Positions 59,773 through 64,000 of a stretch of DNA of 64,000 nucleotides are shown here, piece after piece. Source of the DNA: an uncultured bacterium (GTDB taxonomy: Bacteria > Zixibacteria > MSB-5A5 > UBA10806); NCBI GenBank assembly GCA_965541585.1, contig CBEUCH010000006.1, positions 32,001 to 96,000 on the forward strand, read 5' to 3'. Each line of letters starts with the position of its first letter. The first letter of the stretch is position 1. Below the pieces are notes generated by a model. It saw nothing but the letters and a program-made list of their open reading frames with translations. It was not told where the DNA came from and searched no databases. Made by a program: the position numbers and the translations under genes.

Positions 59773-61965
59773 TTATGATCCTCCAAAGCTGTCATTAGCC
59801 TCGGAACCACCTGCAATTCCAGCTGTATTCTGATGCCAGATTTGGTCGCTAGTTGAGTTCAATCCCGAAGGCGTGCCGTAAATGACATTGACCGCTCCGG
59901 CTCCGGCAATCGCTCCTATACTCTCGTTTCTTACACCGATGGCCAGGTCAGCGCGTCCGTTACCGTTAAAGTCTCCAGAAGTCAGAGACGAGCTAAATTG
60001 ATCATCAGCCTCGGCACCACCGTTAATTCCAGCTGTATTCTGATGCCAGATTTGATCGCTGGTTGCAGTCAATCCTGAGGACGAGCCGTAGATAACGTTG
60101 ACCGCTCCGGCTCCGAGAATAGAGCCGATACTCTCAATCGGTTCGCCGATTGCCAGGTCGGTGCGCCTATCGCCATTGAAGTCACCTGCGGCCAGAGCAG
60201 ATCCGAAGCTGTCGTTGGCCTCGGCTCCACCTTTGATTCCCGCGGTGTTTTGATGCCAGATTTGATCGCCGGTTGCAGTTAATCCCGAGGAGGAGCCGCA
60301 GAGAATGTTCACTGCTCCAGCTCCGGCAATCGTCCCGATACTCTCATTCCTTACACCAATAGCCAGGTCGGCGCGTCCATCGCCATTGAAGTCACCTGCT
60401 GCCAGAGCGGATCCGAAGCTGTCATTGGTTTCGGAGCCACCTTTGATTCCCGCGGTGTTTTGATGCCATATTTGATCGCCGGTTGCAGTCAATCCCGAGG
60501 AGGAGCCGCAGAGAATGTTCACTGCTCCAGCTCCGGCAATCGTCCCGATACTCTCATTCCTTACACCAATAGCCAGGTCGGCGCGTCCATCGCCGTTGAA
60601 GTCACCTGCAGCCAGAGCGGATCCGAAGTTGTCATTGGTTTCGGAGCCACCTTTGATTCCCGAGGTGTTTTGATGCCATATTTGATCGCCGGTTGCAGTC
60701 AATCCCGAGGACGAACCGTAGATGATGTTCACTGCTCCAGCTCCGGCAATAGTTCCTATGCTTTCATTCATTACCGCAATAGCCAGATCGTCACGCCCAT
60801 CGCCATTGAAGTCACCTGCGGCCAGAGCGGATCCGAAGTTGTCATTGGTTTCGGAGCCACCTTTGATTCCCGCGGTGTTTTGATGCCAGATTTGATCGCC
60901 GGTTGCAGTCAATCCCGAGGACGAACCGTAGATGATGTTCACTGCTCCAGCTCCGGCAATAGTTCCTATGCTTTCATTCATTACCGCAATAGCCAGATCG
61001 TCACGCCCATCGCCATTGAAGTCACCTGCGGCCAGAGCGGATCCGAAGTTGTCATTGGTTTCGGAGCCACCTTTGATTCCCGCGGTGTTTTGATGCCAGA
61101 TTTGATCGCCGGTTGAAGTCAATCCCGAGGACGAACCGTAAATGACATTCACTGCTCCTGCTCCAAGAATAGCTCCGATACTTTCATTTCCCACACCAAT
61201 AGCCAGATCGTCACGCCCGTCGCCGTTAAAGTCACCCGTTACTTTACCAGTGAAATTAGAATACAGATAACAAGTGGCATTCCTATCATCCACTTCGAGA
61301 GTTCTGAATGCGATGCTGCCCGCCGCACTTGCTGAAGTCATTGTTGGAAGAGGGGCAGAAGTTAACTCAGTATGGTGAAAACCGATCATGTGCCCGATTT
61401 CATGTGTCGCCGTTTGCTGAATATCACGGACGACTCCGGCGTTTCCTACCGTCCATACGAAGTCGCGGCCATTAAAAGCAACATCCACATCGAGCAATGT
61501 CTGGTTATTTCGTATAGTTATAATTGTTACCGCCAGGACTCCAGCATTTAATATCGGCGCCAGGCCTCCAAATTCAGGCGCGCCGGCTTCTGCCCAGTAT
61601 GTAACGTTGTTTAGATCGGCAGCGTTTCTGGTGGCGGCAGTACCTCCTCCGTAGACAAAAATCAAGTTTGCGCACGATACATTTTGCCAAGCGTTGTATG
61701 CTGCTGTAACCGCATTTTGAGTTTGGTTAAACGTCAACGCATCACCAGCACCGTTGTTATTTACCTGATAACCAACCGTCCGCTCTATCCAACGAACTGT
61801 CACGCCTGAGCCCGGGGGTACAGCTGCTCCGGCCGTATATGTTCCTACTCCCCCGGTTTGTTGAATCAGCCGGTATGCGTAGGCGTTATTACCAACCAAA
61901 AGCAACAAGAACCCGAGAACAAAAGGTGCACAGATCTTTACAATGATTGTGATTCGAATTTTCAT
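59773..61965 (-). CDS. matrixin (M10-like) metalloprotease with about 7 FG-GAP/integrin-alpha repeats
   Basis: HEIGHMIGFHH zinc motif with Met-turn; 70-aa 'GDFNGDGRxDLAI...AGAV' repeats (210-bp period). Confidence 0.9.
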   Translation of the reverse strand: MKIRITIIVKICAPFVLGFLLLLVGNNAYAYRLIQQTGGVGTYTAGAAVPPGSGVTVRWIERTVGYQVNNNGAGDALTFNQTQNAVTAAYNAWQNVSCANLIFVYGGGTAATRNAADLNNVTYWAEAGAPEFGGLAPILNAGVLAVTIITIRNNQTLLDVDVAFNGRDFVWTVGNAGVVRDIQQTATHEIGHMIGFHHTELTSAPLPTMTSASAAGSIAFRTLEVDDRNATCYLYSNFTGKVTGDFNGDGRDDLAIGVGNESIGAILGAGAVNVIYGSSSGLTSTGDQIWHQNTAGIKGGSETNDNFGSALAAGDFNGDGRDDLAIAVMNESIGTIAGAGAVNIIYGSSSGLTATGDQIWHQNTAGIKGGSETNDNFGSALAAGDFNGDGRDDLAIAVMNESIGTIAGAGAVNIIYGSSSGLTATGDQIWHQNTSGIKGGSETNDNFGSALAAGDFNGDGRADLAIGVRNESIGTIAGAGAVNILCGSSSGLTATGDQIWHQNTAGIKGGSETNDSFGSALAAGDFNGDGRADLAIGVRNESIGTIAGAGAVNILCGSSSGLTATGDQIWHQNTAGIKGGAEANDSFGSALAAGDFNGDRRTDLAIGEPIESIGSILGAGAVNVIYGSSSGLTATSDQIWHQNTAGINGGAEADDQFSSSLTSGDFNGNGRADLAIGVRNESIGAIAGAGAVNVIYGTPSGLNSTSDQIWHQNTAGIAGGSEANDSFGGS

Positions 61966-62585
61966 TTTCCCTCCTCCCTTAACTGCTTCTTTTGTATTTC
62001 CCTAACTCTGTCGAAGAATTCGTCTAAGGGTAAACCTTCCTTCCCGCCGGGTGGCAAATCTTCGAGATTCACCTCTGGCTTGAGAAAGAACTTCAAGGCA
62101 TGACTTATAGCTATCATTTTGTTTGTAGTGGAATCCAGCCTGACGTCGAATTTGCCTTGAGACAAAGCGACTATATTGAAGGGTTCTTCATCAGCTTGAA
62201 TAGTCACTTCATGTTGTGAAGCATCCACTCTCTGAAGCATAAGTACCGTCTCTTCATCGATGCTGATCTCTGGTGTACCGATGACAATCATTGATTTGTC
62301 GCCTACAGCCCCACCAGGTAGATAAATGGATATCTCCTCCTTCGTAAAACTGCCCTTCAGAGTGTCCTGCACCTGGAATACGGCCTTAGTATAAATTGCT
62401 GTCCCTTCCCTATTCCAGAAGCTCTCGATCTTAACAAACTTCCCCTTTACTACATGCGAGCTCGAACTAGTTAGCTCTTCAAGCGATAGTCGCACAAATT
62501 CAGTGGCTGTTGCTGTGGTTAGGAATCCCATAAGAAAGATAATCAGCAACATGGTTCGTTGTAGTGTTACATTTTGCTTTTTCAT
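61962..62585 (-). CDS. secreted hypothetical protein translationally coupled to the matrixin gene
   Basis: GAGAGGAG RBS, signal peptide, 'PGG.VG' motif; ATGA-type overlap with the matrixin start. Confidence 0.7.
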   Translation of the reverse strand: MKKQNVTLQRTMLLIIFLMGFLTTATATEFVRLSLEELTSSSSHVVKGKFVKIESFWNREGTAIYTKAVFQVQDTLKGSFTKEEISIYLPGGAVGDKSMIVIGTPEISIDEETVLMLQRVDASQHEVTIQADEEPFNIVALSQGKFDVRLDSTTNKMIAISHALKFFLKPEVNLEDLPPGGKEGLPLDEFFDRVREIQKKQLREEGK

Positions 62586-62788
62586 AATTCTCTCCTCTCT
62601 TTTTCTATTAAGAGAAAACAAAGGCCTAATATCCTCAAAACAATAAATTTGGTACCTTGAATTCTTTAATGGTTGGACCGGACTGCTCCCCATCTTTGGG
62701 CCGGTTTGAATGAAGATTTGCGATGAGATCGTTATGAATCTTTTAAAGTTCACCTGTACCTCCTCATAGCAAACCCAATGATGGGCGA

Positions 62789-62868
62789 TATTTCTAAAAC
62801 ATTCCCGGGGGGATGGGAAAACTTGTTTTTCAAAAAGAGCCTATTGTCCAGTATTGTCAAGGACTTTT
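62789..62868. repeat. about 80-bp upstream element, copy 2
   Basis: Near-identical to 59465-59544. Confidence 0.85.
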
Positions 62869-63070
62869 TTGCGGAATTTCAGTTACTGTCGCTTTAACCG
62901 CATACTCATCCCCCATTGGTCAGCCTCAAAAAGGTCAGACATGATGAATGGAGGGTTTGCGGAAACAAATAGGTCTCTGCGGAAAATTATCAATCAGGCC
63001 CTGATTGGTACGGAGGGTATTGATGGTGAACACAACAAAAAAATCCGACTTTCGTCAGGCTTGAAATCAA

Positions 63071-63114
63071 TGGCGGGGCCGAATCCCGCTTTTAGGGGGA
63101 GAACTTTCGACCTC
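63071..63114 (-). pseudogene. tRNA-Asp 3'-half remnant ending CCA with a palindrome in the T-arm
   Basis: Minus: GAGGTCGAAAGTTC-[TCCCCCTAAAAGCGGGA]-TTCGGCCCCGCCA versus intact GAGGTCGAGAGTTC-GAGTCTC-TTCGGCCCCG. Confidence 0.8.
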
Positions 63115-63130
63115 AAAAGCCTAAAAAAAG

Positions 63131-63205
63131 CGGGGCCGAAGAGACTCGAACTCTCGACCTCCTGCGTGACAGGCAGGCGTTCTAACCAAACTGAACTACG
63201 ACCCC
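63131..63205 (-). tRNA. tRNA-Asp(GTC), CCA not encoded
   Basis: GGGGTCGTAGTTCAGTTTGGTTAGAACGCCTGCCTGTCACGCAGGAGGTCGAGAGTTCGAGTCTCTTCGGCCCCG cloverleaf. Confidence 0.95.
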
Positions 63206-63215
63206 GTAAATTATT

Positions 63216-63479
63216 CTATTTTAAACGATCAACTTTTCTATCTATTAATCCCTTTATCCTATCTTTATTCTTCCATTTTTTTAACTTTTTTTCTCGGACC
63301 GTTGCTTCGGATCGACTCCCGAACTCTTCAACATATACTATTTCCCACGGTCTACAATATCTCGTCGATTTTGAACGTCCCTCATTATGCCGTCTGATTC
63401 GATCCTCAAGATCAGCCGTTGTACCGACGTAAAACCGTTCATTAATCTTACTCTTTAGAATATAAAGGTAACAAGCCAA
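63216..63479 (-). CDS. small GIY-YIG nuclease (UPF0213-like), copy 1
   Basis: 'YLYILKS....FYVGTT.DL..R...HN...S..T....PW..VY.E......A..RE..LK'; probable TTG start after GAGGAGG/AAAGG. Confidence 0.88.
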   Translation of the reverse strand: MACYLYILKSKINERFYVGTTADLEDRIRRHNEGRSKSTRYCRPWEIVYVEEFGSRSEATVREKKLKKWKNKDRIKGLIDRKVDRLK

Positions 63480-63503
63480 TTTACCTTTGTTATCCTCCTC
63501 AAT

Positions 63504-63564
63504 AACTCGCGACCTTCCCGACCTTTTAGGTCGGGACGTTCTAACCAAACTGAACTACGACCCC
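63504..63564 (-). pseudogene. pseudo-tRNA-Asp, anticodon arm replaced by 21-nt palindrome, truncated in T-loop
   Basis: GGGGTCGTAGTTCAGTTTGGTTAGAACG-[TCCCGACCTAAAAGGTCGGGA]-AGGTCGCGAGTT. Confidence 0.85.
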
Positions 63565-63574
63565 GTAAATTATT

Positions 63575-63838
63575 CTATTTTAAACGATCAACTTTTCTAT
63601 CTATTAATCCCTTTATCCTATCTTTATTCTTCCATTTTTTTAACTTTTTTTCTCGGACCGTTGCTTCGGATCGACTCCCGAACTCTTCAACATATACTAT
63701 TTCCCACGGTCTACAATATCTCGTCGATTTTGAACGTCCCTCATTATGCCGTCTGATTCGATCCTCAAGATCAGCCGTTGTACCGACGTAAAACCGTTCA
63801 TTAATCTTACTCTTTAGAATATAAAGGTAACAAGCCAA
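63575..63838 (-). CDS. small GIY-YIG nuclease, copy 2 (identical)
   Basis: Identical to 63216-63479. Confidence 0.88.
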   Translation of the reverse strand: MACYLYILKSKINERFYVGTTADLEDRIRRHNEGRSKSTRYCRPWEIVYVEEFGSRSEATVREKKLKKWKNKDRIKGLIDRKVDRLK

Positions 63839-63862
63839 TTTACCTTTGTTATCCTCCTCAAT

Positions 63863-63923
63863 AACTCGCGACCTTCCCGACCTTTTAGGTCGGGACGTTC
63901 TAACCAAACTGAACTACGACCCC
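63863..63923 (-). pseudogene. second pseudo-tRNA-Asp with palindrome
   Basis: Identical to 63504-63564. Confidence 0.85.
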
Positions 63924-63950
63924 GTAAAAAAATCTATTCTGTTTTCAATC

Positions 63951-64000
63951 TGGGCAGTGCTGGATTCGAACCAGCGACCTTCTGCGTGTAAAGCAGACGT
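63951..64000 (-). tRNA. tRNA-Val(TAC), 3' part (5' end outside window)
   Basis: TCTGC-TTTACAC-GCAGA anticodon arm, AGGTC, GCTGGTTCGAATCCAGC T-arm, ACTGCCCA. Confidence 0.88.

Follow-up and report, generated by a model that had tools for sequence, protein, structure and literature searches.

A hairpin-plugged tRNA copy and a small GIY-YIG nuclease gene form a recurrent, probably selfish element at bacterial tRNA genes

The window analysed here, a 64,000-nucleotide stretch of DNA from an uncultured bacterium of the Zixibacteria, carries two tandem copies of a small unit between a tRNA-Val gene and an intact tRNA-Asp gene. Each unit joins a partial tRNA-Asp copy, plugged by a perfect hairpin, to the gene of a predicted GIY-YIG nuclease. 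The element is real and recurrent, and it is probably selfish. In our preferred reading, to which we assign a probability of roughly 0.55, it is a selfish, integrase-free unit: its nuclease would nick single-stranded DNA at a distance of about 10 nt from the hairpin of the unit, and the recombination machinery of the host, working through homology to the tRNA, would then integrate the unit and raise its copy number. The layout is not a product of chance, because relatives carry the same plug at the same site and a unit of about 95% identity is present in contigs of three out of four sequencing runs.

All features of the locus lie on the minus strand, where the order is tRNA-Val(TAC), unit 1, unit 2 and the intact tRNA-Asp(GTC). 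The tRNA-Val (63951..64000) is truncated by the window edge, the whole gene occupying 95951-96025 of its contig, C6. Units 1 (63537-63895) and 2 (63178-63536) measure 359 bp each, are 100% identical, letter for letter, and consist of a 21-nt hairpin, 12 nt of tRNA remnant, an 87-codon GIY-YIG ORF, a 10-nt spacer and tRNA positions 1-28. The hairpin, hereafter the plug, lies at 63875..63895 and, in identical form, at 63516..63536. It has an 8-bp stem and a 5-nt TAAAA loop, and it exactly replaces the 17-nt anticodon arm behind the first 28 nt of the tRNA. The 12 nt that follow (63863..63874 and 63504..63515) correspond to the variable loop and the 5′ T-stem, differ from the host tRNA by one mismatch (GCGAG versus GAGAG) and mark the end of the tRNA likeness; by analogy with the nuclease SsnA, 63863..63874 is the predicted cut zone. 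The GIY-YIG genes (63575..63838 and 63216..63479) are identical, and the second is separated by 10 nt from the intact tRNA-Asp (63130..63205). The bounding direct repeat comprises a 5-nt leader and tRNA-Asp positions 1-28, first at 63896..63928 (tRNA portion 63896-63923) and again at 63537..63569 (63537-63564), its third copy being the first 28 nt of the intact tRNA-Asp. The first-pass annotation had described the doubled identical units between the two tRNAs, the exact replacement of the anticodon arm, the retention of an intact tRNA and a 33-bp bounding repeat. All of these are borne out, and the repeat extends to 43 nt at 93-100% identity.

A feature absent from that description is a third, gene-less fragment downstream of tRNA-Asp (63071..63113), a 3′-half copy of the tRNA in which a decayed 17-nt hairpin (63084-63100) with the same TAAAA loop replaces 7 nt of the T-arm. 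It probably represents what is left of a second cassette, of the mirror (downstream) type, since in a congener (genome G002, locus L093) the perfect form of this hairpin occurs in plugged copies that flank a GIY-YIG gene on both sides. An Rfam search of the locus matched only tRNA, and the counts of internal promoters and terminators were near the shuffle level (5 versus 2.6 and 5 versus 2.4).

The ORF encodes a GIY-YIG protein (PF01541, E 3.5e-19), with a weak match to T5orf172 as its only other Pfam match. The protein is a single domain of 87 aa if the TTG at 63838 or 63479 is the start, as appears likely. A ribosome-binding site of the nuclease had been placed in the T-loop; the purine run taken for it, GAGGAGG, is 14 nt away from the likely TTG and is not conserved in the homologous loci L001-L003, which leaves that assignment weak. 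A 110-aa product made by reading through the plug was also considered; this frame is open here, but in genome G011 the open frame spans only 89 aa, and the candidate was rejected as a general one. The nuclease gene is under purifying selection and its catalytic residues are intact: dN/dS is 0.07-0.19 for the six pairs among four close homologues, with synonymous sites near saturation, and 133-136 of 136 tRNA-linked proteins retain the catalytic or conserved residues Y6, Y17, G19, R27, H31 and E63. The domain and its Tyr, Tyr, Arg, His and Glu active-site residues place the protein in the GIY-YIG superfamily. The structure model predicts a compact GIY-YIG domain (pLDDT 85), whose closest matches in sequence and fold are UPF0213 (PDB 1zg2, 1ywl) and Slx1 (7cq2, 6seh), at a TM-score of about 0.6 and about 30% identity; the fold also matches the domains of Slx1, UvrC and I-TevI. 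Literature listings for UPF0213 and Slx1 gave no link to tRNA copies.

Our survey revealed that such genes recur beside tRNA genes. The pool comprised 254 loci and five stretches of the window's own genome (G000), with a gene match in 226; 33 were dropped as empty alleles or broken genes, and collapse at 90% protein identity left 202 loci, a sample biased toward the window's own lineage. A tRNA gene on the same strand lies within 400 nt in 136 of these 202 non-redundant loci, and one on the opposite strand in a single locus; this asymmetry makes expression from the tRNA-operon transcript plausible. Hairpin-plugged tRNA copies occur at 83 of the 136 tRNA-linked loci, with 134 plugs in 15 tRNA types. 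The detector requires a perfect stem and an intact tRNA in view, and by it the other 53 tRNA-linked loci have no plug. Among proteins outside the Ssn clade described below, 40 of 176 have no tRNA called within 400 nt, some of them on short contigs. The plugged copies are 5′ halves in 53 cases and lack the 5′ end in another 53, and the plugs sit in D, anticodon and T arms; the earlier idea that the element targets the 5′ half of the tRNA is thus abandoned.

The element is also polymorphic. We inspected by eye 29 tRNA-Asp/Val loci of other genomes, about 19 of which are empty in the stretch viewed, several with a 22-49-nt Val-Asp spacer. In three the gene lies upstream, preceded by a plugged copy, and one has a broken gene downstream; gene-less plugged copies stand upstream in four and downstream in one, and one locus is at a contig edge. 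In the closest named homologues, L001, L003 and L009 (labelled Zixibacteria) and L002 (labelled Ignavibacteria), the gene lies between tRNA-Val and tRNA-Asp with the same plug as in the window, the loops differing. The small, integrase-free, recurrent and polymorphic element proposed in the first-pass annotation is upheld by the homologue survey, by the empty alleles and by tandem arrays, and the two comparisons that it had suggested, with homologues beside palindrome-plugged tRNA fragments and with empty alleles in relatives, both came out in its favour. The arrays were seen among 11 multi-gene loci picked for having neighbouring gene matches: in seven, 2-4 gene-bearing units of 316-430 bp repeat periodically and almost without change (98-100% gene identity), and the other four are stacks of unlike cassettes. 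Among the multi-gene loci, the window's polarity is matched by L116 only. As for vehicles, the search for viral carriers yielded five weak loci (30-44% identity) and that for plasmid carriers one weak match, and none was identified as a vehicle.

Several of the inspected loci have layouts of their own. L080 (genome G009) shows a lone plug-type hairpin in an otherwise empty Val-Asp spacer, with neither tRNA copy nor gene. In L059, L060, L066, L070, L073, L074 and L083, from several genomes of the same order, tRNA-Asp directly follows the upstream gene of a small membrane protein and no tRNA-Val is called in the stretch, possibly after deletion between similar tRNA 5′ ends. In L088 and L095, the GIY-YIG gene precedes a tRNA-Asp copy that is almost complete and has its anticodon arm plugged, with no intact tRNA called nearby, a layout that resembles the far end of an island.

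The plugs themselves point to a sequence-specific DNA hairpin under selection, rather than an RNA fold or a neutral scar, on the grounds of a conserved core, free loops, compensatory stems and the lack of a G-U excess. When inserts were picked by their tRNA anchors only, with no hairpin required, 60 of 76 formed at least five Watson-Crick pairs from their ends (shuffle mean 1.7, maximum 7), and 53 of the 76 contained a CCG..CGG core while the loops varied freely. The plug stems comprise 461 Watson-Crick pairs, with 3 G-T, 7 A-C and 2 other mismatches, and their changes are compensatory across loci. The stretch replaced by the plug is itself usually self-complementary, 46 of 60 distinct stretches pairing at three or more terminal bases (null mean 2.1, maximum 9).

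The nearest parallel is the Ssn family. According to the sections of PMC11893778 drawn on here, SsnA is a 94-aa GIY-YIG enzyme that binds a TCCCG..CGGGA hairpin on single-stranded DNA only, ignoring the loop and needing the stem sequence, and leaves double-stranded DNA and RNA untouched. It releases a 20-nt fragment from the substrate NTS75, and we count the cut, from the oligonucleotide table of the same paper, as 10 nt 5′ of the hairpin. SsnA also lowers the integration of transforming DNA that bears NTS, and Chenal et al. 2025 likened the arrangement NTS-ssnA-NTS to an insertion sequence (PMC11893778). The present system shares with Ssn (SsnA, CDD cd10448) a single-domain GIY-YIG protein (87 aa versus about 90-100 aa), flanking hairpins with a TCCCG..CGGGA core and a free loop, the catalytic spacing (Y6, Y17 and E63 here versus E64) and a median breakpoint distance close to the 10-nt cut offset of SsnA. 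Unlike in Ssn, the hairpins here lie inside tRNA-gene copies, where they replace an arm, the lineages are tied to particular tRNAs, and gene-bearing units form head-to-tail arrays; a term search of the main text of PMC11893778 did not find the word tRNA. The CGTCAT/ATGAC tag is likewise missing: the antisense flank matches it at 4 of 6 positions, and locus L055 has 0 SRM-pattern matches. A universal SRM-like flank was considered and set aside, as this 4-of-6 likeness to the NTS tag is limited to Asp/Ala/Val/Pro-type plugs, the flanks of the Asn, Met, Ser and Gly types being different.

The window protein also belongs to a clade separate from Ssn. We used a quick tree of 87 columns, in which 110 of 199 forks stay open and the Ssn clade is represented through SRM-flanked proteins as a proxy, SsnA itself not being among the rows. 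The SRM-flanked Ssn-type proteins, including two from the window's genome (contigs C3 and C7), form a group of 26 rows (SH-aLRT 99), outside which the window protein falls. The SRM-flank label changes once on the tree, compared with 16.5 times when shuffled, and a tRNA is nearby in 0 of the 26 rows of this group versus 136 of the 176 others; a loose SRM pattern also matched once in each of six tRNA-linked rows. Among the other labels, tRNA type changes 40 times (89.5 shuffled) and hairpin class 19 times (40.4 shuffled), and the paralogues of the window's genome group with same-tRNA cassettes of other genomes, not with each other. This clustering shows site fidelity and stops short of proving co-evolution, because kin share labels, which inflates it. 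Given the position of the protein outside the Ssn clade, nearest to UPF0213 and Slx1, its specificity for single-stranded hairpins is borrowed from Ssn by analogy and should be read as putative.

A clue to the putative cut site comes from the breakpoints of the tRNA copies. In 45 loci, the tRNA likeness ends at a median of 11 nt past the plug (IQR 7-13), and in 33 of the 45 it ends within 6-14 nt, compared with 13.7 under a uniform null and with 0 of 10,000 draws as high. This breakpoint peak is wide and varies by tRNA type. In mirror-type copies, the likeness starts at a median of 12 nt before the plug. A sharp cut exactly 10 nt from the plug, suggested by the kin loci L001, L002, L003 and L009, was rejected, only 5 of the 45 loci ending at exactly 10 nt, and a broad match was kept. 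Since this distance is near the cut offset of SsnA, the plug and about 10 nt of flank may be the enzyme's own site. Another possibility is that the peak could reflect retention of a needed flank instead of a cut.

The proposed course of events is as follows. The hairpin would serve as the binding site of the nuclease, as the NTS/SRM hairpin does for SsnA. Native tRNA arms, which do not contain the core, would escape cutting and leave the host a working tRNA, which would explain why an intact tRNA is tolerated 10 nt from the gene. Nicks beside the plug would yield recombinogenic ends bearing tRNA sequence; if the crossover fell 5′ of the plug, the layout seen in the window would result, with a plugged 5′ half ahead of the gene and the intact tRNA behind it, and a crossover 3′ of the plug would produce the mirror layout, in which the intact tRNA comes first and the plugged 3′ half last. 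The direct repeats of 33-43 bp would then allow units to be gained and lost, giving tandem arrays and gene-less relics. The plugs may arise by the overwriting of a self-complementary stretch, the route of which is the least certain step. A bolder form of this proposal, which we hold tentatively and at somewhat less than even odds, is that the unit, at about 360 bp and with neither integrase nor transposase, ranks among the smallest autonomous mobile elements. It would encode a hairpin-specific single-strand GIY-YIG nuclease that writes its own hairpin over stem-loops in duplicated tRNA genes and nicks next to it, and it would colonise and amplify at tRNA loci through host recombination, each lineage being a new small single-strand enzyme with a hairpin-plus-flank specificity of its own.

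Nuclease lineages that track the tRNA type, together with empty cognate alleles (about 19 of 29), would also fit a SegB-like homing endonuclease that cleaves the intact tRNA-Asp in alleles lacking the unit and enters them during repair, with the plug as an immunity scar. Free-standing homing GIY-YIG enzymes, however, generally have an extra C-terminal DNA-binding domain, whereas the window protein has 87 aa with no separate domain of this kind, and it scores 23.8 bits against a cut-off of 56 in the NCBIfam intron-endonuclease model TIGR01453, matching profile positions 4-39 of 215. Moreover, a gap of 10 nt separates the intact tRNA from the gene here, and the two are neighbours in 136 of 202 loci, an objection that counts only if the tRNA arm is the target. 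For immunity the loss of a site would be enough, yet the same core is found in 15 tRNA types and three arms, and the plug is sometimes doubled in a single tRNA copy (L067, L179). The first-pass annotation had left open whether the palindrome is a recognition or an immunity site; the former role is likely, and the latter is disfavoured by the nearby intact tRNA and by a core conservation that mere target loss does not demand. The precedent for homing is phage T4 SegB, a free-standing GIY-YIG enzyme that, in the abstract of PMC2330249, cuts at a T-arm motif in a tRNA cluster, acting on double-stranded DNA with a 27-bp site, between competing phages. Both cases combine a GIY-YIG gene in a tRNA cluster, conserved tRNA sequence and spread by host or phage recombination, but that abstract does not mention plugged tRNA copies, and the element here is chromosomal, with no close viral relative among the viral matches. 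We regard homing as quite unlikely. The purifying selection on the nuclease could alternatively reflect a domesticated, Ssn-like gatekeeper that cuts incoming or integrating plug-bearing single-stranded DNA and limits recombination at tRNA hot spots, with the repeats as by-products. The lowered integration seen with SsnA speaks for such a role, and so does the fact that tRNA genes are common targets of islands. The two readings are compatible, but the patchy presence among close relatives, the decayed relics and broken genes, the coexistence in one genome of four or more distinct lineages at different tRNAs, and the identical tandem arrays fit a selfish element better, and the gatekeeper appears unlikely.

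The position of the gene, almost always on the tRNA strand, makes co-transcription likely, and the plug folds as RNA too, both of which would suit an RNA-level system in which the protein is bound by the plugged copy, acting as a tRNA-like decoy or as a partner RNA in the manner of an antitoxin or a guide. The pseudo-copy, however, has no acceptor stem and no cloverleaf fold (z -2.3, driven by the plug); the 5′-half, 3′-half, D-, anticodon- and T-arm forms have only the plug in common; the stems lack a G-U excess; and SsnA binds no RNA in the data drawn on from PMC11893778. The tRNA mimic or RNA partner of the first-pass annotation thus finds little room, and we consider an RNA-level system very improbable. 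A different kind of doubt concerns the assembly, in which a real element, present as one unit in the cell, could have been falsely doubled. The two-copy state stands as assembled, from the assembly sequence alone. The units are 100% identical, L001, L002 and L009, which are the closest relatives, carry a single one, and the related units in contigs of runs X1-X3 are single, none spanning two units; a search for sequencing runs with this strain gave a best share of 0.11. Arrays occur nevertheless in other assemblies, including the single-contig genome G110 (3 x 344 bp), and the array genes in G017, G117 and G167 differ by 0.5-1.8%. Short-read assemblers tend more to collapse repeats than to expand them, and in this genome contigs break off at three other cassette loci. 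False doubling therefore seems rather improbable.

The probably selfish, integrase-free unit can also be set against other mobile DNA. REP/RAYT and IS200/IS605 enzymes are HUH tyrosine transposases, which perform strand transfer, whereas the GIY-YIG gene is the only ORF of the unit, which has neither an integrase nor an HUH (Y1) transposase. It differs from tRNA-targeting integrative elements in lacking an integrase and in that its repeat is the 5′ half of the tRNA, not a 3′-end att duplication. What the unit has in common with REP/RAYT and IS200/IS605 is the pairing of small palindromes with the gene of a nuclease believed to bind such palindromes on single-stranded DNA, as described in PMC11893778. 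In a term search of the text available from PMC3733652, on CGTC-tagged REPs, GIY-YIG went unmentioned and the matches to tRNA concerned enzymes. The literature searched, mostly open-access, yielded no description of tRNA-lodged plugged copies.

The genome of the window holds eight GIY-YIG ORFs, as detected with a profile of 15 close homologues, including the two in the window. Four of the other six lie beside tRNA-Gly, tRNA-Asn, a tRNA-Ser-like fragment and tmRNA (one each), and the remaining two amid repeats bearing the CGTCAT tag. The Gly, Asn and Ser loci, all three at contig ends, have tRNA copies with similar hairpin plugs. At the Ser locus (C23:37990-38435), a tRNA-Ser-like 5′ fragment into which two hairpins are inserted precedes the gene, whose 3′ end also occurs upstream; no tRNA-Ser(CGA) is called in the assembly, and an intact tRNA-Ser may sit in the contig gap. 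Elsewhere (C2:278100-278420), three gene-less 5′ copies of tRNA-Met with a plugged D arm, at a period of about 77 bp, precede the intact gene. The two Ssn-type genes (C3:160400-161000 and C7:98200-98950) lie among SRM repeats, some of which are split by a second small palindrome. Genome-wide, TCCCG hairpins number 50, second among 40 matched 5-mers, and 11 of them have Ssn-type flanks, a modest enrichment. The most enriched of the 40 matched 5-mer stems is GCGAG..CTCGC (24 hairpins, ratio 10.8), which is probably another repeat family.

Further along the window, 59773-61965 (minus strand) encodes a predicted secreted protein of 730 aa with a matrixin-like M10 metallopeptidase domain and about six 70-aa FG-GAP repeats (210-bp period). 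It is preceded by an ORF with no Pfam match (61962-62753, minus strand), whose stop overlaps its start. Upstream of that ORF, within 62865-62970, a stretch of about 55 nt recurs at 87-88% identity in C35:4634-4691 and C24:25181-25235, possibly as a shared promoter or regulatory element.

To conclude, the locus adds a doubled gene-bearing unit, a probable mirror-layout relic and a breakpoint match to the SsnA cut distance. With empty, single-unit, doubled and gene-less alleles all represented among its relatives, it lends itself well to testing. Two questions left open for Ssn, the possible origin of nuclease-hairpin pairs as mobile elements and the way in which their hairpins were dispersed, become testable here. 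If our reading is true, these cassettes would form a widespread kind of minimal selfish DNA, capable of reshaping tRNA operons, and would account for pseudo-tRNA arrays and for contig breaks at tRNA genes. They would also provide a lead to the function of a large group of unstudied 80-90-aa GIY-YIG proteins, and add a second family of very small, likely sequence-specific single-stranded DNA nucleases.
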